64,000 bases of DNA from Escherichia coli (lineage in GTDB: Bacteria > Pseudomonadota > Gammaproteobacteria > Enterobacterales > Enterobacteriaceae), in the NCBI RefSeq assembly GCF_050320075.1, contig NZ_CP190018.1; one strand, 5' to 3'. The notes beneath the pieces were generated by a model that was not told the DNA's origin, searched no databases, and worked only from the letters and a program-made list of their open reading frames with translations. Below are positions 10,394-36,149 of the stretch, one piece after another; position 1 is the first letter of the stretch, and every line of letters starts with the position of its first letter. The position numbers and the translations under genes are program-made.

Positions 10394-11380
10394 GTGAACA
10401 GACGTAATTTTATTAAAGCAGCCTCCTGCGGGGCATTGCTGACGGGCGCGTTGCCGTCTGTCAGTCATGCGGCTGCTGAAAACCGCCCGCCAATTCCGGG
10501 ATCGCTGGGGATGTTGTATGACTCGACCTTGTGCGTAGGCTGCCAGGCTTGCGTCACCAAGTGTCAGGATATCAACTTCCCTGAACGTAACCCGCAAGGG
10601 GAACAGACCTGGTCGAACAACGACAAACTGTCGCCGTATACCAATAACATCATTCAGGTGTGGACCAGTGGCACGGGTGTCAACAAAGACCAGGAAGAGA
10701 ACGGCTACGCGTACATTAAGAAACAGTGTATGCACTGCGTCGATCCGAACTGTGTCTCCGTGTGTCCGGTCTCTGCGCTGAAAAAAGATCCGAAAACCGG
10801 CATTGTCCATTACGACAAAGATGTGTGCACTGGCTGCCGTTACTGCATGGTCGCCTGCCCATACAACGTGCCGAAGTACGACTACAACAACCCATTTGGT
10901 GCGCTGCATAAGTGTGAACTGTGCAACCAGAAAGGTGTGGAACGTCTTGATAAAGGCGGTCTGCCTGGCTGCGTAGAAGTGTGCCCGGCGGGCGCGGTGA
11001 TTTTTGGTACGCGTGAAGAGCTGATGGCGGAGGCGAAAAAACGCCTGGCGCTGAAGCCTGGCAGCGAATACCACTATCCGCGTCAGACGCTGAAATCTGG
11101 CGACACTTACCTGCACACGGTGCCGAAATATTATCCGCATCTGTACGGCGAGAAAGAGGGCGGCGGTACTCAGGTTCTGGTACTGACGGGTGTGCCTTAT
11201 GAAAATCTCGACCTGCCGAAGCTGGACGATCTTTCTACCGGTGCGCGTTCCGAAAATATTCAACACACCCTGTATAAAGGCATGATGCTACCACTGGCCG
11301 TGCTGGCGGGCTTAACCGTGCTGGTTCGTCGCAACACCAAAAACGACCATCACGACGGAGGAGACGATCATGAGTCATGA
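10394..11380 (+). CDS. hybA: Hydrogenase-2 ferredoxin-type subunit HybA
   Basis: 328 aa with a Tat signal (MNRRNFIKA) and several CxxCxxCxxxCP 4Fe-4S motifs. Confidence 0.95.
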
Positions 11381-12548
11381 TCCACAACCGCTGGGCGGCA
11401 AAATCATCAGTAAACCGGTCATGATTTTTGGACCGTTAATCGTCATCTGTATGCTCCTGATTGTGAAGCGTCTGGTGTTCGGTCTGGGCTCTGTCTCTGA
11501 CCTGAACGGCGGTTTCCCGTGGGGCGTATGGATCGCGTTTGACCTGCTGATCGGCACCGGCTTCGCCTGTGGCGGCTGGGCGCTGGCGTGGGCGGTATAC
11601 GTCTTTAACCGTGGACAATACCATCCGCTAGTGCGTCCGGCGCTGTTGGCGAGTCTGTTCGGTTACTCACTGGGTGGCTTGTCGATCACTATCGACGTCG
11701 GTCGCTACTGGAACCTGCCGTACTTCTACATTCCGGGTCACTTCAACGTGAACTCGGTACTGTTCGAGACGGCGGTCTGTATGACCATCTACATCGGCGT
11801 GATGGCACTGGAGTTTGCTCCGGCACTGTTTGAACGTCTGGGCTGGAAAGTGTCGCTCAAACGGCTGAACAAGGTGATGTTCTTCATCATCGCGCTCGGT
11901 GCGCTGCTGCCAACTATGCACCAGTCTTCAATGGGGTCGCTGATGATCTCGGCGGGCTACAAAGTGCATCCGCTGTGGCAGAGCTATGAAATGTTGCCGC
12001 TGTTCTCACTGCTGACGGCGTTCATCATGGGCTTCTCGATTGTCATCTTTGAAGGTTCGCTGGTGCAGGCGGGTCTGCGTGGCAACGGTCCGGATGAAAA
12101 GAGTCTGTTCGTTAAGCTGACCAACACCATCAGTGTGTTGCTGGCGATTTTCATCGTGCTGCGCTTTGGCGAGCTTATCTATCGCGACAAGCTGTCGTTA
12201 GCGTTTGCCGGTGACTTCTACTCCGTGATGTTCTGGATTGAAGTCCTGCTGATGCTCTTCCCGCTGGTCGTTCTGCGTGTGGCGAAGCTGCGTAATGATT
12301 CCCGCATGCTGTTCCTGTCAGCACTGAGCGCACTGTTAGGTTGTGCAACCTGGCGTCTGACCTATTCGCTGGTGGCATTCAACCCGGGCGGCGGTTACGC
12401 CTACTTCCCGACCTGGGAAGAACTGTTGATTTCTATTGGTTTTGTGGCTATTGAGATTTGCGCTTACATCGTACTCATTCGTCTACTGCCGATACTTCCT
12501 CCTTTAAAACAAAACGATCATAATCGTCATGAGGCGAGCAAAGCATGA
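11370..12548 (+). CDS. hybB: Hydrogenase-2 integral membrane subunit HybB
   Basis: 392-aa polytopic membrane ORF that overlaps the hybA end by 11 nt. Confidence 0.92.
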
Positions 12549-20657: not shown

Positions 20658-21350
20658 CTAGTGATAACCACGCGCGGTCATAAAATCCGTAATCGCTTTT
20701 TCTGCATCAACCAGTACCTTTTCCAGTGGCTGATTGGCGTCGATATCAACCAGTTGTGCACCACCAAAGGTTAACTGTGGCGTTATGGCTATCTTTCTTG
20801 CCAGCGATTCCCTTTTGTGGTCAGGCTTACGCGCGCAGGCCACATCTAGATCGACATTGAGTTTGATGACCAGATCAGGTTTATGGCTCGCCATCCAGTG
20901 AAACGCTTTACGTTCCTGGCTTGCCAGCCATGAGACAAAACGACCGCCTTCAACGTTAGGTGGGAACACTGTACCATCGTAAGCGCCAGGAATTTGGTCC
21001 TGAGGATAACGGTCGGTTAGAACAATTAACCCGCGACGACGACAGGCAAGCATATGACGAAAGCGCAGTAAGCGACGGGCGACAAACGCTGTAATTACCA
21101 GCGCCGGAACAGGGCCAGGCAATTTTTTTGCTGTTTTCACCTGATTTCGTTCAATTGTTTTATGTAAGGATTTTCCCATCAACGGTAATTTTGTCACTGC
21201 ACGACCGACATTTCCGGCCTGTTTTCCTAAATGAACTCTTTCGGCTGCACCATATTTTTCGACAACGGTAATGAGATGTTCACACACCGTTGACTTGCCT
21301 GAACCATCGCTACCAATAACGGCAATTAATGGAGGTGTTATTGACTGCAT
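20658..21350 (-). CDS. yghT: P-loop NTPase (putative kinase) YghT
   Basis: 230 aa with Walker [10 protein letters not shown] near the N-terminus; paralogous to the next two genes. Confidence 0.85.
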
Positions 21351-21523
21351 GAATATATCCTTTAATTTAAATATCCATTAAAAATATTTATTTGGTTAAT
21401 ATGTTTTTATGAAAGCGTAATTCAGGTCAATGTCACAATTAACCATTGTCACAATAAGGTTGAACGGATATTCTGAGCACGGACCACGTAATATTCAATA
21501 CATTATTTGCTGCCGGGTTTTTC

Positions 21524-22237
21524 GTGAATCAACGTAATATGTCAATAATTAATTCCACGCCAGTGCGTGTTATTGCCATTGTAGGATGTGATGGTTCAGG
21601 TAAATCGACCCTCACGGCAAGCCTGGTAAATGAACTGGCAGCAAGAATGCCAACAGAACACATTTATCTCGGGCAATCGTCCGGGCGAATTGGCGAATGG
21701 ATTTCACAGCTCCCTGTTATTGGCGCACCTTTTGGGCGTTATTTGCGAAGTAAAGCGGCACATGTGCACGAAAAGCCCTTAACACCGCCTGGCAATATTA
21801 CTGCGCTGGTTATCTATCTGCTTTCCTGCTGGCGGGCGTACAAGTTTCGCAAAATGTTGTGTAAAAGCCAGCAAGGCTATCTGCTCATCACCGACCGCTA
21901 CCCGCAGGTTGAAGTGCCGGGTTTTCGCTTTGATGGCCCGCAATTGGCAAAAACCACGGGCGGTAACGGCTGGATAAAAATGTTAAGGCAGCGCGAGCTG
22001 AAGCTGTACCAATGGATGGCGTCTTATTTGCCCGTATTGTTGATTCGTCTTGGCATTGATGAACAAACCGCGTTTTCGCGTAAACCTGACCATCAACTGG
22101 CGGCGTTACAGGAAAAAATCGCCGTTACGCCGCAACTGACATTCAATGGCGCAAAGATCCTTGAACTGGATGGTCGGCAACCAGCCGATGAAATTATGCA
22201 AGCGTCACTACGCGCAATTCACGCCGCGCTTTCCTGA
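21524..22237 (+). CDS. yghS: P-loop NTPase (putative kinase) YghS
   Basis: 237 aa with Walker A GCDGSGKST; paralog of YghT and YghR (shared DRYPQ and ISRKPDH/FSRKPDH motifs). Confidence 0.85.
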   Translation: MNQRNMSIINSTPVRVIAIVGCDGSGKSTLTASLVNELAARMPTEHIYLGQSSGRIGEWISQLPVIGAPFGRYLRSKAAHVHEKPLTPPGNITALVIYLLSCWRAYKFRKMLCKSQQGYLLITDRYPQVEVPGFRFDGPQLAKTTGGNGWIKMLRQRELKLYQWMASYLPVLLIRLGIDEQTAFSRKPDHQLAALQEKIAVTPQLTFNGAKILELDGRQPADEIMQASLRAIHAALS

Positions 22238-22268
22238 TCACCAAAATGGATAGGGGATGATTTAACGA

Positions 22269-23027
22269 ATGGATGCACTACAAACACAAACTGTTAATAG
22301 TACAACCGCGCCGCAGCCCAACTACATTCCGGGGCTGATTGCGGTGGTCGGGTGTGATGGCACCGGTAAATCCACGCTGACCACCGACCTGGTGAAATCG
22401 CTGCAACAACACTGGCAAACCGAGCGCCGCTATTTGGGGCTGCTCTCCGGCGAAGACGGCGACAAAATCAAACGATTGCCGTTGGTTGGCGTCTGGCTGG
22501 AACGGCGACTGGCGGCCAAATCCTCGAAAACCCAAAGCATGAAAACCAAATCTCCAGCGCTATGGGCGGCGGTGATTATGTACTGCTTCTCGCTGCGAAG
22601 AATGGCGAATCTACGCAAGGTTCAGCGACTGGCGCAAAGTGGCGTTCTGGTGGTCAGCGATCGCTTCCCGCAGGCTGAAATTTCGGGCTTTTATTATGAC
22701 GGACCGGGGATTGGCGTCGAGCGCGCGACCGGGAAAATCAACCAATTTCTGGCGCAGCGCGAGCGACAGTTATACCAACAAATGGCGCAGTATCGTCCTG
22801 AATTAATCATTCGTTTGGGGATTGATATTGATACTGCCATCTCCCGCAAGCCTGACCATGACTATGCCGAGCTGCAGGACAAAATCGGCGTCATGTCGAC
22901 GATTGGCTATAACGGCTCAAAAATTCTTGAGATTGATTCCAGAGCGCCCTACAGCGAAGTGCTGGAACAGGCACAGAAGGCGGTTTCTCTGGTTGCCATC
23001 GTTTCTGACCGCCGAAGTTTAACTTAA
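22269..23027 (+). CDS. yghR: P-loop NTPase (putative kinase) YghR
   Basis: 252 aa with Walker A GCDGTGKST; paralog of YghS and YghT. Confidence 0.85.
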   Translation: MDALQTQTVNSTTAPQPNYIPGLIAVVGCDGTGKSTLTTDLVKSLQQHWQTERRYLGLLSGEDGDKIKRLPLVGVWLERRLAAKSSKTQSMKTKSPALWAAVIMYCFSLRRMANLRKVQRLAQSGVLVVSDRFPQAEISGFYYDGPGIGVERATGKINQFLAQRERQLYQQMAQYRPELIIRLGIDIDTAISRKPDHDYAELQDKIGVMSTIGYNGSKILEIDSRAPYSEVLEQAQKAVSLVAIVSDRRSLT

Positions 23028-23072
23028 GGCTGGCGGGATACTTTTTACTATCAACGATAAGGTCAGGCTGAA

Positions 23073-24422
23073 TTGGCGGGTTTTAACATCAAACATTGGT
23101 TTGCAGATGGCGCGTTTCGCACCATTATTCGCAATAGCGCCTGGTTAGGCTCCAGTAATGTCGTGAGCGCTTTGCTGGGTCTGTTGGCGCTCTCGTGTGC
23201 CGGTAAAGGGATGACGCCCGCCATGTTTGGCGTACTGGTGATTGTGCAATCGTACGCCAAGTCGATCAGCGATTTTATTAAGTTTCAGACATGGCAGTTG
23301 GTGGTGCAGTACGGAACGCCAGCCTTGACCAACAATAATCCGCAGCAATTTCGCAATGTCGTCTCATTTTCCTTCTCGTTGGATATCGTCAGCGGCGCGG
23401 TGGCGATTGTCGGCGGCATTGCCTTACTCCCTTTTCTTTCCCATTCATTAGGTCTGGATGACCAAAGCTTTTGGCTGGCAGCGCTGTATTGCACGCTCAT
23501 TCCTTCAATGGCTTCCTCCACGCCGACCGGCATTCTGCGTGCGGTAGATCGCTTCGACTTAATTGCTGTACAGCAGGCGACGAAACCTTTTCTGCGCGCA
23601 GCGGGGAGCGTCGTTGCCTGGTATTTTGACTTTGGTTTTGCGGGTTTTGTTATTGCCTGGTACGCCTCGAATCTTGTTGGCGGCACCATGTACTGGTGGT
23701 TTGCCGCACGTGAATTACGCCGCAGAAATATCCATAACGCGTTCAAATTGAATCTGTTTGAGTCTGCCCGACACATCAAAGGCGCGTGGAGTTTTGTCTG
23801 GTCAACCAACATTGCCCATTCCATCTGGTCGGCGCGTAATTCGTGCAGCACAGTGTTGGTGGGGATCGTGTTAGGACCCGCTGCCGCCGGGTTATTTAAA
23901 ATCGCCATGACATTCTTCGACGCCGCCGGAACGCCAGCGGGTTTACTGGGTAAAAGTTTTTACCCAGAGGTGATGCGTTTAGATCCGCGCACCACCAGAC
24001 CGTGGTTGTTAGGCGTGAAGTCCGGTTTACTGGCGGGCGGAATCGGTATTCTGGTGGCGCTCGCGGTGTTGATCGTCGGCAAGCCGCTCATTTCGCTGGT
24101 GTTTGGCGTTAAGTATCTCGAAGCGTATGACCTGATTCAGGTGATGCTGGGCGCAATTGTGATCTCGATGCTGGGCTTCCCTCAGGAGTCATTGCTATTG
24201 ATGGCGGGAAAACAGCGCGCTTTTCTCGTGGCGCAAACCATCGCCTCAATCGGCTACATCGTATTGCTGTTCATGTTCTGTCATCTGTTTGGCGTGCTGG
24301 GGGCTGCATTTGCTTACTTCGGTGGGCAATGTCTGGATGTGGTGTTCTCGCTAATTCCGACCTTAAAGGCATTTTTTCAGCGCCATTCCTTGCTTTATAA
24401 CTCAGCCGGAGAGAAATCCTGA
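23073..24422 (+). CDS. yghQ: Polytopic membrane protein YghQ, flippase-like (MOP/Wzx-type polysaccharide or lipid translocase fold inferred)
   Basis: Track ORF with a TTG start at 23073. The true start is uncertain; an ATG such as 23211 is possible. About 12 predicted hydrophobic segments. Its stop overlaps the next ORF's ATG. Confidence 0.75.
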   Translation: MAGFNIKHWFADGAFRTIIRNSAWLGSSNVVSALLGLLALSCAGKGMTPAMFGVLVIVQSYAKSISDFIKFQTWQLVVQYGTPALTNNNPQQFRNVVSFSFSLDIVSGAVAIVGGIALLPFLSHSLGLDDQSFWLAALYCTLIPSMASSTPTGILRAVDRFDLIAVQQATKPFLRAAGSVVAWYFDFGFAGFVIAWYASNLVGGTMYWWFAARELRRRNIHNAFKLNLFESARHIKGAWSFVWSTNIAHSIWSARNSCSTVLVGIVLGPAAAGLFKIAMTFFDAAGTPAGLLGKSFYPEVMRLDPRTTRPWLLGVKSGLLAGGIGILVALAVLIVGKPLISLVFGVKYLEAYDLIQVMLGAIVISMLGFPQESLLLMAGKQRAFLVAQTIASIGYIVLLFMFCHLFGVLGAAFAYFGGQCLDVVFSLIPTLKAFFQRHSLLYNSAGEKS

Positions 24423-25246
24423 TGATGAGAAAATATTTCCCGCTTGAGGCGAGCGAGCGTCTATTTGTTGCGATTGAAGAAGATGATGTTGTTGATGCAC
24501 AGGTCAGTTTGCCGCCGACTATCGCACTAAGTTGTACCACCGAAATCATCCATGATAATTACGCGTTATGCCTGCAATTCTGGCTCAATGGCGTCAATCG
24601 CCAGGAGTTACTGCGTTTAATATGCAAACAGGCCAAAGGCGATGAGCTGACTGCTGATGAGCGCAAACAATTTAAATACATGCGAGCGCGCTACAAGCAC
24701 CTGCGTTTTGCGCAACGGCTGTATTTAAAAAAGCATCAGGCCGGATTTTTATTCGGCAAAACGACCGTTTTTTTGGGGCGTTTTCAGGACGGCTTTCGTA
24801 ACGGTAAGAAAAATATTGTGTCGTATTACGGCAACCTGTTACGGGTTTATTTAAGCTCTCCGGTCTGGTCGTTGGTGAACTATTCATTACGCCATAGCCA
24901 GTTAGAAAGCGTAAGCGGTTTTATTGCCTATCGGCAAAAGCAAATGCATACCCTGAAAGAGATAATTGCCAAATCGCGACTAACTGGCAGGGAATTTCAT
25001 GATGTGCGAAAAATCATCAGCCAGCAGGTTTCTTATTACGACACCCTAAGATCGCTTGATCCTGAAAATAAAGAGGCGTTACAGATTTCCCGCTTCCTCG
25101 CCGCCATTAATGGCCTGATGGGGGATAAACACGACGACATGGTGGCGGATGATATGGAAAACCGCCAGTCGTATGATGCACCGATGGCGCTGGATAGCGA
25201 TATTCGTCAGCGCTTAGAACTGCTGATTTCGCGTTTTCCGCTATAA
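24422..25246 (+). CDS. Hypothetical soluble protein, 274 aa, translationally coupled to yghQ
   Basis: The ATG at 24422 overlaps the yghQ TGA. No signal peptide or TM segment and no family recognised; basic composition. Confidence 0.55.
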   Translation: MMRKYFPLEASERLFVAIEEDDVVDAQVSLPPTIALSCTTEIIHDNYALCLQFWLNGVNRQELLRLICKQAKGDELTADERKQFKYMRARYKHLRFAQRLYLKKHQAGFLFGKTTVFLGRFQDGFRNGKKNIVSYYGNLLRVYLSSPVWSLVNYSLRHSQLESVSGFIAYRQKQMHTLKEIIAKSRLTGREFHDVRKIISQQVSYYDTLRSLDPENKEALQISRFLAAINGLMGDKHDDMVADDMENRQSYDAPMALDSDIRQRLELLISRFPL

Positions 25247-25254
25247 CCGGAGCA

Positions 25255-25818
25255 ATGATGTCATCTCGTTTGATTATTGCGCTGGTTATCATGCTCTTAG
25301 CCCCGGGTGTGCAGGCGCACAATTTCGTCACTGGTAAAACGGTTACCCCTGTTTATATCCAGGAAGGCGGCGAGCTGCTTCTGAATAGCGAAGACGAAAT
25401 TCACTACCAAAAGTGGAACAGCACACAGCTGGCGGGAAAAGTCCGCATTATTCAGTATATCGCCGGGCGTAAGTCGGCGAAGAAAAAGAACTCACTGTTA
25501 ATTAAAGCGGTTGAAGCGGCAAACTTTCCGCAGGATCGTTTTCAGCCCACCACCATTGTGAACACTGATGATGCCATCTTTGGTACCGACTATTTTGTCG
25601 TTGGCAAAATCGAAAAAAATAAACGCCGCTATCCATGGGCGCAATTCGTTATTGACGGCAATGGACAGGGACGCGTTGCCTGGCACTTGCAGGAGCAGAG
25701 TTCAACCATTCTGGTGCTGAATAAAACCGGGCAAATTCAGTGGGCAAAGGACGGCAGTCTGACGCCGGAAGAGGTAGATCATGTCATTGCGCTGGCGCAG
25801 AAACTGATCAATGAATAA
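25255..25818 (+). CDS. YtfJ-family periplasmic protein (signal peptide)
   Basis: 187 aa with an N-terminal signal (MMSSRLIIALVIMLLAPGVQA). It resembles recalled E. coli YtfJ over its whole length (HNFVTGKTVTP..., TTIVNTDDAI..., WAKDGSLTPEEV). Confidence 0.7.
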   Translation: MMSSRLIIALVIMLLAPGVQAHNFVTGKTVTPVYIQEGGELLLNSEDEIHYQKWNSTQLAGKVRIIQYIAGRKSAKKKNSLLIKAVEAANFPQDRFQPTTIVNTDDAIFGTDYFVVGKIEKNKRRYPWAQFVIDGNGQGRVAWHLQEQSSTILVLNKTGQIQWAKDGSLTPEEVDHVIALAQKLINE

Positions 25819-25848
25819 AAAATTCAAAGGATTGAGGGCGTTAGTGAG

Positions 25849-26919
25849 ATGAAGCTGGTTGAACACTACATCATGCGTGGTACGCGCCGTCTGGTGCTGA
25901 TTATCGTCGGTTTTCTGATCTTTATTTTCGCCAGCTACTCCGCACAGCGTTATCTGACCGAAGCGGCAAATGGGACATTAGCTCTTGATGTTGTGCTGGA
26001 TATCGTTTTCTACAAGGTGCTGATTGCACTGGAGATGTTGTTACCTGTTGGACTGTATGTGTCAGTTGGCGTGACGCTAGGGCAGATGTATACCGACTCG
26101 GAAATTACCGCTATCTCTGCGGCGGGGGGCAGTCCGGGACGCTTGTACAAAGCCGTTCTTTATCTGGCGATACCGCTAAGTATTTTTGTCACCCTTCTGT
26201 CGATGTATGGTCGTCCGTGGGCTTATGCACAGATTTATCAACTGGAGCAACAGTCACAGTCGGAGCTGGATGTTCGCCAGTTGCGGGCAAAGAAATTTAA
26301 CACTAACGATAACGGACGAATGATCCTTTCGCAGACGGTTGATCAGGATAATAATCGCCTGACTGACGCGCTGATTTATACTTCTACTGCCAATCGAACC
26401 CGCATTTTCCGCGCCCGTTCGGTTGATGTGGTTGACCCATCACCTGAGAAACCGACCGTTATGTTGCATAACGGGACCGCCTATCTTCTCGATCATCAGG
26501 GGCGTGACGACAACGAACAGATCTACCGTAATCTGCAATTACATCTGAATCCGCTGGATCAAAGCCCTAACGTCAAACGCAAAGCAAAATCGGTCACGGA
26601 GCTGGCGCGCTCCGTCTTTCCAGCCGATCATGCCGAACTGCAATGGCGACAAAGCCGTGGCCTGACAGCGTTGTTGATGGCGCTGCTGGCCATTTCATTA
26701 AGTCGGGTAAAACCGCGGCAAGGGCGATTTTCAACGTTATTGCCACTGACGTTGCTGTTTGTTGCCATTTTTTATGGCGGCGACGTCTGCCGTACGCTGG
26801 TGGCTAACGGCGCGATTCCCCTCATTCCTGGTTTGTGGTTAGTACCCGGACTCATGCTAATGGGCCTGCTGATGCTGGTCGCACGCGACTTCTCTTTGCT
26901 GCAGAAATTTTCCCGATGA
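25849..26919 (+). CDS. LptF-like permease (YjgP/YjgQ family) paralog
   Basis: 356 aa with the LptF/LptG architecture: three TM segments, a large periplasmic insert, then three TM segments. N-terminus MKLVEHYIMRGTRRLVLIIVGFL. Distinct from housekeeping lptF. Confidence 0.75.
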   Translation: MKLVEHYIMRGTRRLVLIIVGFLIFIFASYSAQRYLTEAANGTLALDVVLDIVFYKVLIALEMLLPVGLYVSVGVTLGQMYTDSEITAISAAGGSPGRLYKAVLYLAIPLSIFVTLLSMYGRPWAYAQIYQLEQQSQSELDVRQLRAKKFNTNDNGRMILSQTVDQDNNRLTDALIYTSTANRTRIFRARSVDVVDPSPEKPTVMLHNGTAYLLDHQGRDDNEQIYRNLQLHLNPLDQSPNVKRKAKSVTELARSVFPADHAELQWRQSRGLTALLMALLAISLSRVKPRQGRFSTLLPLTLLFVAIFYGGDVCRTLVANGAIPLIPGLWLVPGLMLMGLLMLVARDFSLLQKFSR

Positions 26920-27995
26920 ATGTTTTCAGTCGCTATTTAATCCGTCATCTCTTTCTCGGTTTTGCCGCCGCCGCAGGGCTATTGCTGCCGCTTTTTACTA
27001 CCTTCAACCTGATTAACGAACTGGATGATGTCAGCCCGGGCGGTTATCGCTGGACTCAGGCGGTGCTGGTGGTGCTGATGACCTTACCGCGTACACTGGT
27101 CGAACTTTCGCCGTTTATCGCCTTATTGGGAGGGATTGTTGGCCTGGGGCAGTTATCGAAAAACAGTGAGCTTACCGCCATTCGCAGCACAGGGTTTTCT
27201 ATCTTCCGTATTGCACTGGTGGCGCTGGTTGCCGGGATATTGTGGACTGTTTCGTTAGGCGCGATAGATGAGTGGGTGGCGTCGCCATTGCAGCAACAGG
27301 CGCTGCAAATCAAATCGACTGCCACCGCGTTGGGGGAGGACGATGACATTACCGGCAATATGCTTTGGGCCAGGCGCGGTAATGAATTTGTGACGGTGAA
27401 ATCGCTGAACGAGCAGGGCCAGCCTGTGGGCGTGGAGATATTTCATTATCGCGACGATCTCTCGCTCGAATCCTACATTTTTGCACGCAGTGCCTCCATT
27501 GAAGACGACAAAACATGGATCCTGCATGGTGTGAATCATAAAAAATGGTTGAATGGCAAAGAAACGCTGGAAACATCAGATAATCTTGCCTGGCAATCGG
27601 CCTTCACCAGTATGAATCTTGAAGAGTTATCGATGCCGGGAAATACTTTTTCTGTCCGTCAACTTAATCATTACATCCATTATTTGCAGGAAACTGGGCA
27701 ACCCAGCAGCGAATACCGCCTTGCACTGTGGGAAAAACTGGGACAACCCATCCTGACCCTGGCGATGATTTTGCTGGCTGTGCCGTTTACCTTTAGTGCC
27801 CCGCGTTCGCCAGGGATGGGTAGCCGTCTCGCTGTAGGCGTCATCGTTGGCTTACTCACCTGGATCAGCTATCAAATCATGGTCAATCTGGGGTTGCTAT
27901 TTGCGTTGAGCGCACCTGTTACCGCGCTCGGTTTACCGGTAGCGTTTGTGCTGGTGGCGTTGAGCCTGGTGTATTGGTATGACAGACAACATTAA
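26916..27995 (+). CDS. LptG-like permease (YjgP/YjgQ family) paralog
   Basis: Track ORF 26835..27995 trimmed to the ATG at 26916 (MNVFSRYLIRHLFLGFAAAAG...), which overlaps the stop of the preceding permease (ATGA). Same architecture as LptG. Confidence 0.75.
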   Translation: MNVFSRYLIRHLFLGFAAAAGLLLPLFTTFNLINELDDVSPGGYRWTQAVLVVLMTLPRTLVELSPFIALLGGIVGLGQLSKNSELTAIRSTGFSIFRIALVALVAGILWTVSLGAIDEWVASPLQQQALQIKSTATALGEDDDITGNMLWARRGNEFVTVKSLNEQGQPVGVEIFHYRDDLSLESYIFARSASIEDDKTWILHGVNHKKWLNGKETLETSDNLAWQSAFTSMNLEELSMPGNTFSVRQLNHYIHYLQETGQPSSEYRLALWEKLGQPILTLAMILLAVPFTFSAPRSPGMGSRLAVGVIVGLLTWISYQIMVNLGLLFALSAPVTALGLPVAFVLVALSLVYWYDRQH

Positions 27996-28029
27996 ACCCG
28001 CCGTGGCGCAGCGCCACAGCGGGCTCACA

Positions 28030-29202
28030 TTACTGCTTCAGAGTAGCGAACGCTTGAATGATGGCATCAATTTGCTCACGACTGTGGGCAGCGTTTACGC
28101 TACAGCGCAGCAGCGTGATGCCTGCAGGCGCGGCAGGTGGCAGGATAAGATTCACATAAACGCCCAGCGAAATAAGCTCGCGCCAGATGCGTAAACCGTC
28201 CTCTTTCGAACCGATTATTACTGGCACTACCGGGCTAATATGTGAACTTAACTCGTAACCCAGTTTTTGCAGACCGTCATACAGATGGTTGGCATTATCC
28301 ATCAGCTTTTGCCGCAACTCTGGTTGTGTAGCAATGGTTCTTAACGACGAGCGCACGGTCGCAATGCAGGACGGAGAAGGAGAGGCGGTAAAAATATACG
28401 GGCGGCTGCCGTAGCGCAGCACTTCCATCGCTTCCGAACCGACAGCAAAACCGCCAATCGAGGCCAGACTTTTACTGAAAGTACCAACGATAATATCCAC
28501 ATCATCTTCAACGCCAACGGCTTCAGCCAGTCCGCGCCCCGTTGCGCCTAACACGCCAAACGAATGCGCTTCATCGACAATCAAATAACCACCGAGACGA
28601 CGTTTGATATCAACAATTTCCGCCAGCGGCGCAACGTCACCGAGCATACTGTAGATGCCTTCAACGATGATAATCGCCTCTTTTGCCCGTTCACCGAGGC
28701 GAACCATGCGCCGTTCCAGATCTTTAGCATCGTTATGGCGGAAACGAATAATTTCCGCGCCACCGAGAGAACAGGCGTCATAAATACTGGCGTGGCTGTC
28801 GGCATCCAGTAACACCACGGCGTTATGGTCGGCAAGTGCGCTGATGACGCCTAAATTAGCGGTATAACCGGTTGAAAAAACGATAGCGGTAGGGCGATTA
28901 AAAAACTCGGCGATCTCTTTCTCTAACGCCAGATGCGGCGCATAACTGCCGTTTGCCATACGAGAACCGGTGGTGCCGGTGCCTTGGGCCGCTAACGCTG
29001 CCTGACCTTCGGCGATGGCATCATGATTGAAGGTTAATCCGAGATAATTATTGGTCCCGGCCAGAATCACTTTTTTATTGCCGATCCGGCCTTCGGTGGC
29101 GGAATACACTTCATCAATACAGGTACCAAACGGCGTTAACCCGTTGTCACTAAATTGCAGTCGCTCGCCAGCAAGACGCGCATATTTATCGTATAGCCCC
29201 AT
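28030..29202 (-). CDS. Alpha-oxoamine synthase (class-II aminotransferase), serine-palmitoyltransferase-like
   Basis: 390 aa with the PLP-lysine motif GTFSKSLASIGG and a HSFG motif, typical of the Spt/BioF/KBL family. Last gene of a four-gene minus-strand operon. Confidence 0.8.
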   Translation of the reverse strand: MGLYDKYARLAGERLQFSDNGLTPFGTCIDEVYSATEGRIGNKKVILAGTNNYLGLTFNHDAIAEGQAALAAQGTGTTGSRMANGSYAPHLALEKEIAEFFNRPTAIVFSTGYTANLGVISALADHNAVVLLDADSHASIYDACSLGGAEIIRFRHNDAKDLERRMVRLGERAKEAIIIVEGIYSMLGDVAPLAEIVDIKRRLGGYLIVDEAHSFGVLGATGRGLAEAVGVEDDVDIIVGTFSKSLASIGGFAVGSEAMEVLRYGSRPYIFTASPSPSCIATVRSSLRTIATQPELRQKLMDNANHLYDGLQKLGYELSSHISPVVPVIIGSKEDGLRIWRELISLGVYVNLILPPAAPAGITLLRCSVNAAHSREQIDAIIQAFATLKQ

Positions 29203-29450
29203 TATTTATTCTCCAGCCATGGAAGTAGTGTTTCCATTAATTGCGCAGGGGTTTTGACATCCAGCAGAATATTAATAGGAATGGAAATATCGAATCTGTC
29301 TTCCAGCATCATTAAGAGATCCATCACTTTGATCGACTCCAGGCCAAGATCGTTGACGAGATCGCTGTCGGGCTTAATTTCCACACCGTTTTCGACCAAA
29401 TCCTGTAAACAGGAAAGGATGTAATCCATTACTATTTCACGATTTACCAT
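29202..29450 (-). CDS. Standalone acyl carrier protein
   Basis: 82 aa with a phosphopantetheine-attachment-like motif (DLGLESIKVMDL). Its stop overlaps the start of the downstream alpha-oxoamine synthase. Confidence 0.75.
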   Translation of the reverse strand: MVNREIVMDYILSCLQDLVENGVEIKPDSDLVNDLGLESIKVMDLLMMLEDRFDISIPINILLDVKTPAQLMETLLPWLENK

Positions 29451-29481
29451 AGAAACGTTAACACACCTTTAAACAAGACAA

Positions 29482-30396
29482 TCAAAATAGCCCGTTGCGT
29501 AATGCGTGTTCCAGGCTAATCCCGGGAAACCAATTAATATCTTCAGAAATACGGTTATTACTTGCTGACCAGTCGGCGTGGGTTAATTCACGGATTTTCG
29601 AGCGGGTCAGCATAGGTTCTTTACCTGCCAGGCGACTCAACGTGGTACTGATATCCGCAAGGCAGGTGAGTACCGACAGAGGAATACCAACCATTCGAAC
29701 GGAACCACAACGGGCGTCGGCGGCAAGCTGTCTTACGCGTTGCCAGTCATAGCCGCCGGCGACGCCATCGCATAATTCATAGGTTTGCGTCTGTACAGTT
29801 TCGGCGCTTAACCACTGCCCCACGGCTTGCGCGAAATCGGTGACGTGCAGGAAAGAGAGCTGTGTATCTGGCGCACCAAGTCGTGGCAGCAGGCCGCGCA
29901 GCATCCAGTCAAACAGCGGTTTTAACTCTTTATCGCCGGGACCATACACGGCTGTCGGGCGAAAAATGCCCAGCGTAATTTCGTCAGCCATTGCGGTCAG
30001 TCGTTGTTCGGCGACGTGTTTGGAGTTTGCATACCAGGAGAGTTCGGGATGACGCGCCGCCAGCGAAGAGATAAACAGAAAACGTTGGCAAAAGCCGCTC
30101 TCTTTTGCCGCTTGCATCAGGCGCAGGCTGCCGTCAACGTTACAGCGGGTAAAAATCTCTTCTTTGTGTCCGCGCACTTGTCCGGCGCAATGGACCACCG
30201 CGCTGGCTCCGGCAACCAGTTCGCTAAGCGAATGTGTATCTTCCAGCGAACCGCGCACCCAGATGAGATTATCATTGACGTGAGCGCGGGCAGTACGCGT
30301 CAATGCGCGAACGTGAAAGCCGCGGGCGAGCAGGTTATCGATAATATATTTACCGATAAACCCGGTAGCGCCCGTCACCGCGACAGTTTGATTCAT
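29482..30396 (-). CDS. NAD(P)-dependent epimerase/dehydratase (extended SDR) family reductase
   Basis: 304 aa with an N-terminal GATGFIG Rossmann motif and a YANSK (YxxxK) catalytic motif. Its start overlaps the upstream ligase stop by 4 nt. Confidence 0.8.
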   Translation of the reverse strand: MNQTVAVTGATGFIGKYIIDNLLARGFHVRALTRTARAHVNDNLIWVRGSLEDTHSLSELVAGASAVVHCAGQVRGHKEEIFTRCNVDGSLRLMQAAKESGFCQRFLFISSLAARHPELSWYANSKHVAEQRLTAMADEITLGIFRPTAVYGPGDKELKPLFDWMLRGLLPRLGAPDTQLSFLHVTDFAQAVGQWLSAETVQTQTYELCDGVAGGYDWQRVRQLAADARCGSVRMVGIPLSVLTCLADISTTLSRLAGKEPMLTRSKIRELTHADWSASNNRISEDINWFPGISLEHALRNGLF

Positions 30397-32114
30397 GCCA
30401 GGGATTCCTGCACATGAAGGCTTGCAGCATAAGCCTTCTGATAACGTTTTTTCGCTTCCGCACGGGCAGGCTTGCCGGAGGACGTTCGGGGAATACTGTG
30501 GGGCGGCAACAGATCGATAGCCGCGGTCACGCCAAATTCGCTTTGGATCCGTGCTGCCAGCGCGTGGATAAGCTGCCCGCGACGTTCTTCATCGCTGATC
30601 CGACACTGGATCTGCAAAATGATTTTTTCCTGGGCGGTAACAAAAGCAATCGCATCGCCAGAATGAATTTCCGGTTCCTGTTCCGCAATATATTCAATAT
30701 CCTGCGGCCAGATATTGCGGCCACGAATAATAATCAGATCTTTAATGCGTCCGGTGACATACAGATAACCGTCCAGCAGATAACCGAGGTCGCCGGTGTC
30801 TAACCAGCCCGTCGCGGCAATCTCGTCTTGTGAAATCTGGTCGCCAAAGTAACCGCTCATCAGGCTAGGGCCGGAGATGCAAATATGGCCTACCACACGT
30901 TCCGCGACAGGTATACCTGCTTCATTGCGGATTTCAATGCCATGTTCCGGCAACGCTTTACCGCAGTTGACGAAAGTCGATACGGCGCGTGTTTCAGCAT
31001 CCGGCGCGACGGCTTTGCCCTGATATTCGAGGATGTCGCGATCCACTTCGTTAACCACAACCCCGGAAGCTTCATCAGAGAAGCTGACAGCCAGCGCATT
31101 TTCTGCCAGTCCGTAGCACGGCATGAACGTTTTATCGTCAAAGTTAACCTGACGAAAACATTCAGCGAATTGATGGAGTTGTTCTGCGGAGATCGGTTCT
31201 GCGCCAATACCAGCGACGCGCCAGCAGGAAAGATCCAGTTCAGCGAGATCTTTTTCATTCACGCGGCGCTGGCACAATTCATAGCCAAACGGCGGCGCAA
31301 CGGAAACGGTGCCGCGATTTTTACTGATCAATTTAAGCCATTGCAGAGGACGCATGGCAAAATCCTGAGTGCGCAAATAATCTACTGAGAGCTGCGTGGC
31401 GACGGGGGTCAGGAGAAAGCCGACCAGTCCCATATCATGGTAGAAAGGCAGCCAGGAGACGCAGCGGTCGCCAGGGCGTAATTTAATGCCATCGTGGCTT
31501 ATAGCACGTAGATTAGCCATCACTTCGCGATGGGTGATAATGACGCCACGGGGAAAACGGGTGCTGCCGGAGGTGTACTGGAGGTAGGCGATATCGTTCG
31601 GAACTGGACGCTGGAGTGCAACATCGGCTTCCGGTAATGCCTTAAACCAGGCGTGGCTTAAAACATGTAATTCGGGTTTGTTATGCGTCGCGGCATTGAC
31701 CAGCGGTAACCACTCATCACCAGTGATAATGGCTGCGGGCTGGCAACTTGCCAGTAAACCCTGCAGTTTGGCGCTCCAGGAATCCCGCTGACCGACGCCC
31801 ATTGGAATCGCCAACGGGACGGCGATTAAGCCGGCATACTGGCAGGAAAAAAAAGCCTCTACGAACCCGCTACTGGTTTCGGCAATCAGCGCCACGCGAT
31901 CGCCTTTTTTCAGGTTCAGCGATAACAACCGCTTCGCACCAGCTTCGGCACGCGCTTTTAACGTCTGATATTCCAGTTGATCTTCAAGTTGGCAACGTCT
32001 GTCATAAAAATTCATTCCGGCGCTACTCAGAGCGGCGTAGTCCAAAGCATCAACCAGCGTTGGAAAATCGGCATAGCGCATAGGTAGGGAATGCGTAAAG
32101 ATTTTATTAGACAT
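30393..32114 (-). CDS. AMP-binding enzyme, fatty-acyl-AMP ligase or acyl-ACP synthetase-like
   Basis: Track ORF 30393..32141 trimmed to the ATG at the complement of 32112-32114 (MSNKIFTHSLPMRY...). Adenylation core motif YTSGSTRFPRGV. First gene of the operon. Confidence 0.8.
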   Translation of the reverse strand: MSNKIFTHSLPMRYADFPTLVDALDYAALSSAGMNFYDRRCQLEDQLEYQTLKARAEAGAKRLLSLNLKKGDRVALIAETSSGFVEAFFSCQYAGLIAVPLAIPMGVGQRDSWSAKLQGLLASCQPAAIITGDEWLPLVNAATHNKPELHVLSHAWFKALPEADVALQRPVPNDIAYLQYTSGSTRFPRGVIITHREVMANLRAISHDGIKLRPGDRCVSWLPFYHDMGLVGFLLTPVATQLSVDYLRTQDFAMRPLQWLKLISKNRGTVSVAPPFGYELCQRRVNEKDLAELDLSCWRVAGIGAEPISAEQLHQFAECFRQVNFDDKTFMPCYGLAENALAVSFSDEASGVVVNEVDRDILEYQGKAVAPDAETRAVSTFVNCGKALPEHGIEIRNEAGIPVAERVVGHICISGPSLMSGYFGDQISQDEIAATGWLDTGDLGYLLDGYLYVTGRIKDLIIIRGRNIWPQDIEYIAEQEPEIHSGDAIAFVTAQEKIILQIQCRISDEERRGQLIHALAARIQSEFGVTAAIDLLPPHSIPRTSSGKPARAEAKKRYQKAYAASLHVQESLA

Positions 32115-32141
32115 ATACACCACGAAAAAATTGGATATCAA

Positions 32142-32485
32142 AAATAAAATGACAATAATGCGGTGGATTATATAGGCATAAAAGATAAATGAGATAGTAT
32201 TTTCATCAGTGTGAAAATGAACATTGATTTAAATAATGAGTTTGAGTTTTTTTGTTTTTATTGTGAATGATATTTAATTTATGAATGTATTAAGAAGAAG
32301 CCTTGTCCGGTCGCCTTAAATCGACAAAAGGCATTGTGGCGCTTCTGTGTAGTCTCTGACCTTATCGTAATCATTAATAAATACTATTTATTCGTCGTTT
32401 GTATTCATTGGGTTGATTATTAAGGTGCCGTTCGTTGCTGTTGCAACCTGTTTGTCACCGTTAATTATTTGTTACCCACAGAACT
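32142..32485. promoter_or_regulatory. AT-rich divergent promoter region between the ligase operon (-) and the yghO-like gene (+)
   Basis: 344-bp non-coding, visibly AT-rich segment. No individual sites were mapped. Confidence 0.4.
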
Positions 32486-33628
32486 ATGGAATGCGATCTG
32501 CTGATGATTAAAATTGAAAAAGTAATTAATAAAAATGACCTTAAGGCATTTATCGCTTTTCCGTCATCACTTTATCCCGACGATCCAAACTGGATACCCC
32601 CTTTATTCATTGAACGCAACGAGCATTTGTCTGCGAAAAATCCGGGGACGGACCATATCATCTGGCAGGCGTGGGTGGCAAAAAAAGCAGGGCAGATAGT
32701 TGGGCGTATTACCGCGCAAATCGATACCTTGCACCGCGAGCGTTACGGCAAAGATACCGGTCATTTCGGCATGATTGACGCCATTGATGATCCGCAGGTT
32801 TTTGCCGCGTTGTTTGGCGCAGCGGAAGCGTGGTTGAAGTCACAAGGTGCAAGTAAGATCAGCGGTCCTTTCAGCCTGAATATCAATCAGGAAAGCGGAT
32901 TACTGATTGAAGGTTTCGATACACCACCCTGTGCGATGATGCCACACGGCAAACCGTGGTATGCCGCGCATATTGAACAATTGGGTTATCACAAAGGCAT
33001 TGATTTACTGGCGTGGTGGATGCAGCGAACCGATCTCACTTTCTCTCCGGCCCTAAAAAAACTGATGGATCAGGTGCGCAAAAAAGTGACCATTCGCTGC
33101 ATCAATCGCCAGCGGTTTGCCGAAGAGATGCAAATCCTGCGTGAGATTTTCAACTCTGGCTGGCAGCACAACTGGGGATTTGTGCCGTTTACCGAACATG
33201 AGTTCGCGACCATGGGCGATCAACTTAAATATCTGGTGCCGGACGATATGATCTACATCGCTGAGATTGATTCTGCACCCTGCGCGTTTATTGTCGGCTT
33301 GCCGAACATCAACGAGGCGATTGCCGATCTGAACGGATCGCTCTTTCCCTTCGGCTGGGCAAAATTGCTGTGGCGTTTGAAAGTCAGCGGTGTGCGAACT
33401 GCGCGAGTACCGCTGATGGGCGTGCGGGACGAGTATCAGTTCAGCCGCATCGGCCCGGTGATTGCGCTGTTATTGATTGAAGCCTTACGCGATCCGTTTG
33501 CCCGCCGGAAGATCGATGCGCTGGAGATGTCATGGATCCTCGAAACCAATACAGGCATGAATAACATGCTGGAACGCATTGGGGCGGAGCCGTACAAGCG
33601 TTACCGATTGTATGAAAAGCAGATTTGA
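32486..33628 (+). CDS. yghO: YghO-like protein, intact; candidate acyltransferase (function inferred from context, not proven)
   Basis: 380-aa ORF (the start may instead be the ATG at 32504). Soluble, no signal peptide. Sits between the lipid operon and glcC, where K-12 has the yghO remnant. Confidence 0.65.
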   Translation: MECDLLMIKIEKVINKNDLKAFIAFPSSLYPDDPNWIPPLFIERNEHLSAKNPGTDHIIWQAWVAKKAGQIVGRITAQIDTLHRERYGKDTGHFGMIDAIDDPQVFAALFGAAEAWLKSQGASKISGPFSLNINQESGLLIEGFDTPPCAMMPHGKPWYAAHIEQLGYHKGIDLLAWWMQRTDLTFSPALKKLMDQVRKKVTIRCINRQRFAEEMQILREIFNSGWQHNWGFVPFTEHEFATMGDQLKYLVPDDMIYIAEIDSAPCAFIVGLPNINEAIADLNGSLFPFGWAKLLWRLKVSGVRTARVPLMGVRDEYQFSRIGPVIALLLIEALRDPFARRKIDALEMSWILETNTGMNNMLERIGAEPYKRYRLYEKQI

Positions 33629-33634
33629 TGGCAG

Positions 33635-34399
33635 TCACCCCTGCTTCATCTCCAGCGGCACCGCCGAGCGAATCAAATGGTGGCCTTCCAGCTCGATATA
33701 GTGGAGATTCTTTTTCACGGTCCGCACATGATCGCATGCTGCGCGCTGGGCGACGTGCGGCAGCCGCTGCAACACCGCGTTGTAGATCCGCGCATGCTGG
33801 CGATCGATCTGCTTTTTTTGCTGTGGTCGATGGTAGAGATTATTTACGCTGGCAAACACTGAATTAAACATCAGATCGGTCAATGATTGCAGCGTAAACA
33901 CCAACACCTGATTGTGAGAAGCCTGACAAATGGCGAGATGGAAAGCGTGATCCAACTGCGCATGTTCGATCAGCGAAATCTCTTTGTTGTTCTCACTGGC
34001 GGCGAGCATTTTTTCATAACAGCGGGTTATCACAACAAAATCAGCCTGGGTTCCCAGCGTTGCCGCAAGCCTTGCCGATTCACCCTCCAGCAATGCGCGA
34101 ACGTCGAGCAGATCGTACAGCGTTCGCGGCTGCGTGCTGAACAGATGAATTAGCGGGCTGGTATCCTGCACCCGATTAAGCCGTGCGACACGAGAATCGC
34201 GACCCTGCGCCGTTTCAATAATCCCGCGCCCGCGCAGCACGGTCAGCCCTTCACGCAGTGCGGAGCGTGAGAAGCCGAGCTTTTCACACAGTCGACGTTC
34301 CGAGGGAAGCGGCTGACCGACCTTCAGTACGCCGTCGATAATTAACCGTTCGATACTCTCTGCAACCACTTCGCAAATAGGGCGACGTTCATCTTTCAT
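33635..34399 (-). CDS. glcC: GntR-family regulator of the glc operon, GlcC
   Basis: Track ORF 33635..34459 trimmed to the ATG at the complement of 34397-34399 (MKDERRPICEVVAESIERLIIDG...). Confidence 0.9.
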   Translation of the reverse strand: MKDERRPICEVVAESIERLIIDGVLKVGQPLPSERRLCEKLGFSRSALREGLTVLRGRGIIETAQGRDSRVARLNRVQDTSPLIHLFSTQPRTLYDLLDVRALLEGESARLAATLGTQADFVVITRCYEKMLAASENNKEISLIEHAQLDHAFHLAICQASHNQVLVFTLQSLTDLMFNSVFASVNNLYHRPQQKKQIDRQHARIYNAVLQRLPHVAQRAACDHVRTVKKNLHYIELEGHHLIRSAVPLEMKQG

Positions 34400-34649
34400 T
34401 CCCGGACCTCGTGCACAGGTAGGACCAATTTTTCTGTTCTTGACTCGCAAAACACGCACATCACGTAAGTGATTATGTTACATCAATTTAACATTAAGTT
34501 AACCAAGACAAGGTCACAGAGCTGGAAAAAAAATGGTCTGACCGGTAGCTAAAGAGATAGACGAAAACGAAAAGCCCGCTTAATAACTGTTCACAGAAGC
34601 AGCGCGCAAAAATCAGCTGCCACACAACACAACAAAGCGAAGCCTACTC

Positions 34650-36149
34650 ATGAGCATCTTGTACGAAGAGCGTCTTGATGGCGCTTTACCCGATGTCGAC
34701 CGCACATCGGTACTGATGGCACTGCGTGAGCATGTCCCTGGACTGGAGATCCTGCATACCGATGAGGAGATCATTCCTTACGAGTGTGACGGGTTGAGCG
34801 CGTATCGCACGCGTCCATTACTGGTTGTTCTGCCTAAGCAAATGGAACAGGTGACAGCGATTCTGGCTGTTTGTCACCGCCTGCATGTACCGGTGGTGAC
34901 CCGTGGTGCAGGCACCGGGCTTTCTGGTGGCGCGCTGCCGCTGGAAAAAGGTGTGTTGTTGGTGATGGCGCGCTTTAAAGAGATCCTCGACATTAACCCC
35001 GTTGGTCGCCGCGCGCGCGCGCAGCCGGGCGTGCGTAACCTGGCGATCTCCCAGGCCGTTGCGCCGCATAATCTCTATTACGCGCCGGATCCTTCCTCAC
35101 AAATCGCCTGTTCAATTGGCGGCAATGTGGCGGAAAATGCCGGTGGCGTCCACTGCCTGAAATATGGTCTGACCGTACATAACCTGCTGAAAATTGAAGT
35201 GCAAACGCTGGACGGCGAGGCGCTGACGCTGGGATCGGACGCGCTGGATTCGCCTGGTTTTGACCTGCTGGCGCTGTTCACCGGATCGGAAGGTATGCTC
35301 GGCGTGACCACCGAAGTGACGGTAAAACTGCTGCCGAAGCCGCCCGTGGCGCGGGTTCTGTTAGCCAGCTTTGACTCGGTAGAAAAAGCCGGACTTGCGG
35401 TTGGTGACATCATCGCCAATGGCATTATCCCCGGCGGGCTGGAGATGATGGATAACCTGTCGATCCGCGCGGCGGAAGATTTTATTCATGCCGGTTATCC
35501 GGTCGACGCCGAAGCGATTTTGTTATGCGAGCTGGACGGCGTGGAGTCTGACGTACAGGAAGACTGCGAGCGGGTTAACGACATCTTGTTGAAAGCGGGC
35601 GCGACTGACGTCCGTCTGGCACAGGACGAAGCAGAGCGCGTACGTTTCTGGGCCGGTCGCAAAAATGCGTTCCCTGCGGTAGGACGAATCTCCCCGGATT
35701 ACTACTGCATGGATGGCACCATCCCGCGCCGCGCCCTGCCTGGCGTACTGGAAGGCATTGCCCGTTTATCGCAGCAATATGATTTACGCGTTGCCAACGT
35801 CTTTCATGCCGGAGACGGCAACATGCACCCGTTAATCCTTTTCGATGCCAACGAACCCGGTGAATTTGCCCGCGCGGAAGAGCTGGGCGGGAAGATCCTC
35901 GAACTCTGCGTTGAAGTTGGCGGCAGCATCAGTGGGGAACATGGCATCGGGCGCGAAAAAATCAATCAAATGTGCGCCCAGTTCAACAGCGATGAAATCA
36001 CGACCTTCCATGCGGTCAAGGCGGCGTTTGACCCCGATGGTTTGCTGAACCCTGGGAAAAACATTCCCACGCTACACCGCTGTGCTGAATTTGGTGCCAT
36101 GCATGTGCATCACGGTCATTTACCTTTCCCTGAACTGGAGCGTTTCTGA
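34650..36149 (+). CDS. glcD: Glycolate oxidase FAD-binding subunit GlcD
   Basis: 499 aa, matching recalled GlcD. Confidence 0.95.
   Translation: MSILYEERLDGALPDVDRTSVLMALREHVPGLEILHTDEEIIPYECDGLSAYRTRPLLVVLPKQMEQVTAILAVCHRLHVPVVTRGAGTGLSGGALPLEKGVLLVMARFKEILDINPVGRRARAQPGVRNLAISQAVAPHNLYYAPDPSSQIACSIGGNVAENAGGVHCLKYGLTVHNLLKIEVQTLDGEALTLGSDALDSPGFDLLALFTGSEGMLGVTTEVTVKLLPKPPVARVLLASFDSVEKAGLAVGDIIANGIIPGGLEMMDNLSIRAAEDFIHAGYPVDAEAILLCELDGVESDVQEDCERVNDILLKAGATDVRLAQDEAERVRFWAGRKNAFPAVGRISPDYYCMDGTIPRRALPGVLEGIARLSQQYDLRVANVFHAGDGNMHPLILFDANEPGEFARAEELGGKILELCVEVGGSISGEHGIGREKINQMCAQFNSDEITTFHAVKAAFDPDGLLNPGKNIPTLHRCAEFGAMHVHHGHLPFPELERF

Follow-up and report, generated by a model that had tools for sequence, protein, structure and literature searches.

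A group of four closely packed genes in Escherichia coli, at positions 28030-32114 of a 64,000-nucleotide stretch of contig NZ_CP190018.1 (assembly GCF_050320075.1; the whole stretch is hereafter called the window), raises the question of which lipid it serves to make. The locus was identified here as an aasR-cerR-acpR-spt operon that encodes the core of the (dihydro)ceramide pathway of Proteobacteria, a reading to which we give a probability of roughly 0.9. The locus is already known, annotated, and partly characterised in E. coli itself. In strain BL21(DE3), ECD_02851 was named AasR, ECD_02853 AcpR, and ECD_02854 serine palmitoyltransferase (SPT) (Padilla-Gomez et al. 2022, Front Microbiol 13:961041; PMC9386255). 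These three proteins were reported to form 3-oxo-sphinganine jointly, and ECD_02852, a short-chain dehydrogenase/reductase (SDR), was called a predicted reductase (PMC9386255).

Organization of the four-gene operon

The open reading frame listing of the window showed four intact, closely packed genes on the minus strand (lengths in amino acids, aa).

28030-29202, minus strand: alpha-oxoamine synthase gene (spt), 390 aa, GTFSKS present
29202-29450, minus strand: carrier protein gene (acpR), 82 aa, DLGLESIK present
29482-30396, minus strand: extended SDR gene, 304 aa, GATGFIG and YANSK present
30393-32114 from ATG (RefSeq) or 30393-32141 from TTG, minus strand: gene of an AMP-binding enzyme (aasR), YTSGSTRFPRGV present

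The ligase stop and the SDR start overlap by 4 bases, a 31-base gap separates the SDR gene from that of the acyl carrier protein (ACP), and 1 base is shared by the ACP stop and the synthase start. The start of the ligase is ambiguous, with candidates at TTG 32141 (582 aa), at ATG 32114 (573 aa), and at a later ATG that corresponds to the 562-aa BL21 annotation. In operon order, the RefSeq labels are fatty acyl-AMP ligase, NAD-dependent epimerase/dehydratase family protein, acyl carrier protein, and "spt: serine palmitoyltransferase". The initial annotation of this DNA had described four co-directional minus-strand genes with overlapping or near-overlapping ends and had quoted their motifs, all of which were found at 28030-32114. 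It had also assigned them to the bacterial set of Spt, dedicated ACP, acyl-ACP synthetase, and reductase, and on this NCBIfam, RefSeq, the identity to BL21, and the PDB agree.

Upstream of the operon, a 371-base A+T-rich spacer (32115-32485; G+C ~0.41-0.45) separates the ligase start from the divergent start of yghO, and presumably carries both divergent promoters and any regulator sites. The promoter scan gave no convincing sigma-70 match in 32115-32485, and promoter-like sites in the region were no commoner than in shuffled sequence. At the other end, the terminator-like scan returned one feature between the operon and the convergent gene lptG2.

27993-28027, no strand assigned: stem-loop of 16 G+C-rich pairs, within the 34 bases that separate the convergent stops of lptG2 and spt

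This stem-loop is likely a bidirectional terminator; its position is suggestive only, because terminator-like matches in the region as a whole (8 matches) were not above those in shuffled sequence (6.0 +/- 2.6). Since neither scan did better than shuffled sequence, we infer co-transcription of the four genes from their spacing and conserved order.

The synthase is a serine palmitoyltransferase by family

Among the NCBIfam models, the window Spt passed the SPT equivalog NF047599 with 599.5 bits (cutoff 500) and remained under the cutoffs of the sister models, namely bioF (333.8; cutoff 426.45), Kbl (297; 460), the CqsA-type model NF005526 (221.3; 428), and ALAS (219.2; 338.55). In the PDB search, its top solved relatives were the SPTs of Sphingomonas paucimobilis and S. 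wittichii (~377 bits, E ~1e-111, full length). A Sphingobacterium SPT ranked next (264 bits); a cysteate acyltransferase, KBL, and BioF did not exceed 205 bits, and CqsA reached 125. BioF, Kbl, ALAS, and CqsA were ruled out as identities of the synthase by these cutoffs and this ranking. A position inside BioF or KBL, named beforehand as the result that would speak against a sphingoid-type synthase, was thus not what was found, and the CqsA/LqsA (CAI-1-type) group was excluded by the CqsA-type score and by structures at 125 bits versus 377 for SPT.

Residues of the active site were compared with the S. paucimobilis structure 2JG2. H137, D210, H213, and K244 of Spt align with His159, Asp231, His234, and Lys265, which by alignment makes K244 the pyridoxal phosphate (PLP) lysine, H137 the stacking histidine, and D210/H213 the Asp/His pair; the Arg of LLRCS is also kept. 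A dedicated acp gene stands directly before spt, the acpR stop overlapping the spt start at 29202, and the same arrangement was present in every related locus examined. Spt is identical to BL21(DE3) ECD_02854 at 389 of 390 residues. The window synthase would therefore be expected to make 3-oxo-sphinganine from L-serine and a long-chain acyl thioester, as shown experimentally for this near-identical protein.

The ligase, the carrier protein and the reductase

AasR, encoded by the first gene of the operon, scored 872 bits against the NCBIfam model NF006624, "fatty acyl-AMP ligase" (FAAL; cutoff 600), and lay far under the cutoffs of the FadD-type CoA-ligase models of NCBIfam. It shares 549 of 562 residues with BL21(DE3) ECD_02851. 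By family and by this identity, AasR is probably a specialised acyl-ACP synthetase of the FAAL type that loads a long-chain fatty acid onto AcpR.

The carrier protein AcpR is identical to ECD_02853 over all 82 residues (same accession, WP_000248097.1), and its phosphopantetheine site is Ser39, within DLGLESIK. Against the ACP models of NCBIfam it stayed under the cutoff (35.6 bits versus 71), and because all of its ACP model matches are below cutoff, AcpR was not taken to be the housekeeping AcpP.

For the SDR, no NCBIfam model reached its cutoff, the best being an HpnA-type SDR (93.6 bits). Its orthologues carry Pfam Epimerase/3Beta_HSD, and 293 of its 304 residues are identical to those of BL21(DE3) ECD_02852. 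The latter was reported to be 34% identical to Caulobacter CC_1164 (E 7e-38, 94% coverage; Table S2 of PMC9386255). The SDR is thus a predicted cerR/epi-like reductase that would act on the 3-keto group of the pathway.

Activities reported for the BL21(DE3) enzymes

The experiments on the E. coli (Ec) proteins concern the first steps of the pathway. AcpR(Ec) was shown to carry 4'-phosphopantetheine, and when AasR(Ec), AcpR(Ec), and SPT(Ec) were expressed together, a lipid arose that co-migrated with 3-oxo-sphinganine (PMC9386255). ECD_02854 built 14C-serine into such a co-migrating lipid, and SPT(Ec) preferred palmitoyl-AcpR over palmitoyl-CoA or palmitoyl-AcpP (PMC9386255). AasR(Ec) accepted its own AcpR, and the Caulobacter crescentus (Cc) protein AcpR(Cc) was not acylated by it (PMC9386255). 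The selectivity of AasR in vitro was described with the Caulobacter enzyme, and the evidence on the E. coli enzyme comes from complementation in vivo, together with AcpR(Ec) and SPT(Ec) (PMC9386255). Clustering of the five genes aca, aasR, epi, acpR, and spt was given there as limited to Caulobacter and E. coli BL21 (PMC9386255).

That the locus makes a long-chain amino-ketone or amino-alcohol lipid had been proposed for the window beforehand, and the production of 3-oxo-sphinganine by near-identical BL21(DE3) enzymes supports that proposal. The accompanying remark that the product is probably uncharacterised is outdated for the enzymes and the first intermediate, both of which that paper describes, and holds just for the native E. 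coli end product. The finding of the four genes as such adds nothing beyond the RefSeq annotation and PMC9386255.

A ceramide synthase orthologue beside the operon

The gene across the spacer from aasR, outside the interval 28030-32114, would supply a further enzyme of the pathway.

32486-33628, plus strand: yghO, bCerS/Aca orthologue, divergent from the operon, 380/380 residues identical to ECD_02850

ECD_02850 was reported to be 44% identical to Caulobacter CC_1154 (CCNA_01212; E 1e-107, 98% coverage), and both CC_1164 and CC_1154 were found to be needed for dihydroceramide synthesis in Caulobacter (PMC9386255). On this similarity, yghO is an orthologue of the bacterial ceramide synthase gene. 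YghO itself had no match in Pfam or NCBIfam, and its homologues carry the source label N-acetyltransferase. Orthologues were present in Serratia, Pluralibacter, Pantoea, Erwinia, Kosakonia, and Mangrovibacter, and in Serratia and Pluralibacter yghO adjoins the ligase gene of the spt operon.

Two further genes were observed close to yghO orthologues. In a Hafnia locus (L004), the yghO orthologue has a gene for an Sfp-type 4'-phosphopantetheinyl transferase (4570-5226) ~240 bases away; this enzyme is a candidate for activating AcpR, and the proximity is possibly a coincidence. In a Serratia liquefaciens locus (L012), yghO is followed by a prokaryotic diacylglycerol kinase gene (11354-11716), again possibly by coincidence.

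Distribution, loss from K-12 and alternative readings

The four-gene operon was present (coverage of at least 80%) in 4067 of 5426 complete E. coli genomes, on the chromosome and at 95-99% identity; the few matches labelled "plasmid" were chromosome-sized records or a Rahnella megaplasmid. Alignment to K-12 MG1655 showed that this strain lacks window positions 24142-32525 (8.4 kb) and has an IS5 element in their place, which bears out the earlier statement that K-12 is without these genes. The missing segment takes in the 3' end of yghQ together with five downstream genes and all four genes of the operon, and it includes the first 40 bases of yghO. K-12 has lost the operon by an IS5-associated deletion. 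Some further E. coli genomes have matches to different portions of the locus alone, so that gaps of several kinds exist.

In comparison with BL21(DE3), the ratio of non-synonymous to synonymous substitution (dN/dS) was 0.02 for spt, 0.115 for the ligase gene, and 0.149 for the SDR gene, and acpR and yghO had no non-synonymous change, with dS between 0.02 and 0.12. These low values indicate that the genes are held by purifying selection. Close Spt orthologues (84-96% identity) were found in E. albertii, Pseudocitrobacter, Citrobacter amalonaticus, and Hafnia. The order ligase, SDR, ACP, Spt recurs across Enterobacterales and on a metagenome contig (L008) whose Spt is 56% identical; the contigs of two representative Spt homologues were too short to give a gene context. 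A 334-aa protein encoded upstream of the L008 operon was considered as a YghO homologue and ruled out, as it has no similarity.

Several observations weigh against a working ceramide pathway in E. coli. About a quarter of the complete E. coli genomes are without the operon, which is therefore dispensable. In Spt, the position of Arg378 of the S. paucimobilis enzyme, a residue that we take to contact the serine carboxylate, is occupied by Leu, and the RPPATP loop reads LPPAAP (residues ~355-362); the BL21 enzyme with the same LPPAAP loop is nonetheless serine-active. Empty-vector BL21(DE3), which has the chromosomal locus, was described as giving no 3-oxo-sphinganine in complex medium, either in vivo or in extracts (PMC9386255). 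In the same source, the activities of the E. coli SDR reductase and the YghO N-acyltransferase are just suggested ("might encode"), and the E. coli product was called by co-migration in thin-layer chromatography, the mass spectrometry being that of the Caulobacter enzyme set (PMC9386255). The literature that could be searched yielded no sphingolipid reported for wild-type E. coli.

Some of these observations would suit a silent evolutionary remnant, in which the enzymes are functional, expression is never physiologically meaningful, and no native product arises. The product-free empty-vector strain (PMC9386255), the ~25% of complete genomes without the operon, the partial matches of differing kinds (the K-12 IS5 deletion among them), and promoter-like sites no more frequent than in shuffled sequence can all be read in this way. 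We nevertheless regard such a remnant as unlikely, because a never-expressed locus would be expected to decay, whereas ten of the ten island genes are intact (dN/dS 0-0.15 at dS ~0.05-0.12 versus BL21), the operon is kept at 95-99% identity in the 4067 genomes counted above, and in Enterobacterales the island persists despite rearrangement into at least four gene orders. A non-sphingoid alpha-aminoketone as product, either a CAI-1/LAI-1-like alpha-hydroxyketone signal or an aminolipid precursor from an amino acid other than serine, is very improbable: the fold and PLP motifs are common to all alpha-oxoamine synthases, Spt also matches the bioF, Kbl, CqsA-type, and ALAS models below their cutoffs, its Arg378-equivalent residue is unlike that of the Sphingomonas enzyme, and PMC9386255 devotes a section to relaxed substrate specificity among rhodobacterial SPTs, but the SPT equivalog is the sole model above cutoff, the CqsA-type model and CqsA structures fall far behind (221 versus 428, and 125 bits versus 377 for SPT), the 389/390-identical enzyme put 14C-serine into the lipid co-migrating with 3-oxo-sphinganine in the cited experiments, and the ceramide synthase orthologue yghO adjoins the operon.

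Proposed pathway

In the proposed pathway, AasR would adenylate a long-chain fatty acid and then transfer the acyl group to the phosphopantetheine arm of holo-AcpR. In a decarboxylating condensation of acyl-AcpR and L-serine, the PLP enzyme Spt would then form 3-oxo-sphinganine. The AasR, AcpR loading, and Spt steps have been demonstrated with the near-identical BL21(DE3) proteins and are expected to hold for those of the window. By analogy with Caulobacter, YghO (bCerS) may then N-acylate the keto-base, after which the SDR (CerR) may reduce the 3-keto group to yield dihydroceramide; the reverse order is possible. Klein's group placed acylation before reduction (PMC11087976), and Geiger's group originally proposed the opposite order, reduction before acylation. 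Finally, products of the convergent yghQ...lptF2-lptG2 operon may flip the lipid and extract it toward the outer membrane.

Putative transport genes and other neighbours

The genes convergent with the operon include second copies of the permease genes of the lipopolysaccharide exporter, preceded by three co-conserved genes.

23073-24422, plus strand: yghQ, MOP/Polysacc_synt flippase-like, accessory gene, co-conserved
24422-25246, plus strand: CHAD-like helical protein, 274 aa, accessory gene, co-conserved
25255-25818, plus strand: periplasmic YtfJ-family protein with the signal-like N-terminus MMSSRLIIALVIMLLAPGVQA, between the CHAD-like gene and lptF2
25849-26919, plus strand: lptF2, TIGR04407 LptF, 319 bits
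26916-27995 (start per RefSeq 26916), plus strand: lptG2, TIGR04408 LptG, 304 bits, convergent with spt

LptF2 and LptG2 are candidate sphingolipid extractors. In Caulobacter, the LptF/LptG paralogues were reported to be deletable only without spt, to form a mutual complex, and to bind LptB, and the E. coli UTI89 locus was drawn with lptF/lptG paralogues in the same 2026 preprint (bioRxiv 10.64898/2026.04.12.717747). The transport candidates of Geiger's group, proposed earlier, are LptC2/F2/G2 and the Polysacc_synt-type flippase CC_1166 (PMC11324152); their counterparts in the window are lptF2, lptG2, and yghQ. The YtfJ-family gene was present in 34/35 full-flank Enterobacterales islands versus 1/40 loci of other taxa (the survey is described below), and its product could be a periplasmic partner of LptF2/G2. 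The 274-aa CHAD-like protein had no Pfam match.

On the far side of yghO, glcD is intact in the window (34650-36149, plus strand, 499 aa); RefSeq marks it as "frameshifted" in strain YZLc1-3 (L001 14651-16148), although over 23000-34500 the sequence of that strain matches the window at 100% identity.

Linkage of YghR/S/T to spt across Proteobacteria

Beyond yghQ lie three genes with paralogous products.

20658-23027, mixed strands: yghT (minus), yghS (plus), and yghR (plus), three paralogous P-loop kinase-like proteins

YghR, YghS, and YghT have in common a Walker A motif GxDGSGKS together with DRYPQ and RKPDH. A structure model of YghS (predicted local distance difference test score, pLDDT, 83) had thymidylate and deoxynucleoside kinases as its best matches; its sequence gave nothing significant against the PDB, and in PADLOC the three proteins returned P-loop noise alone. 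Homology to the Caulobacter ceramide kinase CpgB was ruled out, since CpgB has an LCB5/diacylglycerol-kinase domain and YghS is thymidylate (TMP)-kinase-like. A literature search found no paper tying yghR/S/T to sphingolipids.

Gene linkage was surveyed in one genome per species, scanned with an alignment of YghR/S/T, and 80 loci were searched for the island proteins of the window. Full-flank loci numbered 35 in Enterobacterales and 23 in other taxa, and linkage means within 10 kb of YghS. Spt was linked in all 35 Enterobacterales loci, across at least four gene orders, and among the same loci the 274-aa protein was present in 34, YghQ in 32, and LptF2/G2 in 26. yghO, beside spt, was linked in 21/35, and elsewhere it may fall past the flank. 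PitB had been regarded as a member of the conserved block, as seen in the first three genera, and was dropped because it adjoins in just 7/35. In Hafnia, Citrobacter, and Pseudocitrobacter, the whole yghO-pitB block is syntenic with the window and the outer flanks differ; in Serratia, the spt operon stands directly beside yghT-yghS-yghR.

Outside Enterobacterales, Spt (54-73% identity) was linked in 12 of the 23 full-flank loci, with Rhodanobacter, Luteibacter, Dyella, Carnimonas, Rhodocyclaceae, and several metagenome-assembled Betaproteobacteria and Gammaproteobacteria among the taxa concerned. Shorter loci from Sulfuritalea, Gallionellaceae, and one Aeromonadales assembly also contained Spt. 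In about half of the non-enterobacterial loci spt lay out of reach; genomes in which it was not within 10 kb include those of Halioglobus, Nitrotoga, and sphingomonads. Eighteen of the 23 full-flank loci had a YghQ-like gene. Sphingobium and Acetobacter have YghQ and YghR/S-like genes together (51-56% identity), with a homologue of the 274-aa protein in Sphingobium too (44%); the Novosphingobium YghQ-like match reaches merely 26% identity.

This gene neighbourhood suggests that YghR/S/T act on the lipid head group or on trafficking. Tentatively, the sphingolipid island of E. coli and other Enterobacterales may be larger than has been described, with YghR/S/T, the CHAD-fold and YtfJ-family proteins, YghQ, and LptF2/G2 building or handling a new, probably phosphorylated or anionic, ceramide head group and delivering the lipid to the outer membrane; we consider this possible, though the odds are against it.

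Comparison with known systems

The closest counterpart is ECD_02850-ECD_02854 of BL21(DE3) (yghO/aca, aasR, epi, acpR, spt), which is the same locus with the same gene order and flanks (glcC; lptG/lptF paralogues) and 96-100% protein identity. The window differs from it by 1 substitution in Spt, 11 in the SDR, and 13 in AasR, and by a ligase start that gives 573/582 rather than 562 aa.

In Caulobacter crescentus, the corresponding genes lie within CC_1152-CC_1168 (aasR CC_1165, cerR CC_1164, acpR CC_1163, spt CC_1162, bCerS CC_1154). The five ceramide genes, the order aasR-cerR-acpR-spt, a pair of LptF/LptG paralogues, and a Polysacc_synt-type flippase candidate (CC_1166) are common to Caulobacter and the window. 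No counterpart of the Caulobacter head-group genes (the ceramide kinase gene CC_1160, and CC_1152, 1153, 1158, 1159, and 1161) or of lptC2 was seen in the window, in which no search with the Caulobacter sequences was made for them. Unlike Caulobacter, the window island has three TMP-kinase-like paralogues, a CHAD-like protein, and a YtfJ-family protein.

The SPTs of S. paucimobilis and S. wittichii (2JG2, 2X8U) have the PLP Lys, the stacking His, the Asp/His pair, and the LLRCS Arg in common with the window Spt. In Sphingomonadaceae, aasR is far from acpR-spt, whereas the window has the four genes together in a single operon. BioF, Kbl, and CqsA/LqsA have the same fold and PLP chemistry as Spt, in which an amino acid and an acyl thioester undergo a Claisen-type condensation, but their genomic context is unlike that of the window Spt.

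Significance for E. coli lipid biology

Most natural E. coli strains, with BL21, UTI89, and many pathogenic and commensal isolates among them, carry an intact, selected ceramide pathway that has been lost from K-12. The lipid biology of E. coli has been defined mostly on a strain that is unable to make these lipids. The linkage of YghR/S/T and the CHAD-like protein to spt provides concrete candidates for the missing head-group or transport steps. If the larger island proves to be as tentatively outlined above, about three quarters of E. coli strains would be latent makers of a new complex sphingolipid.

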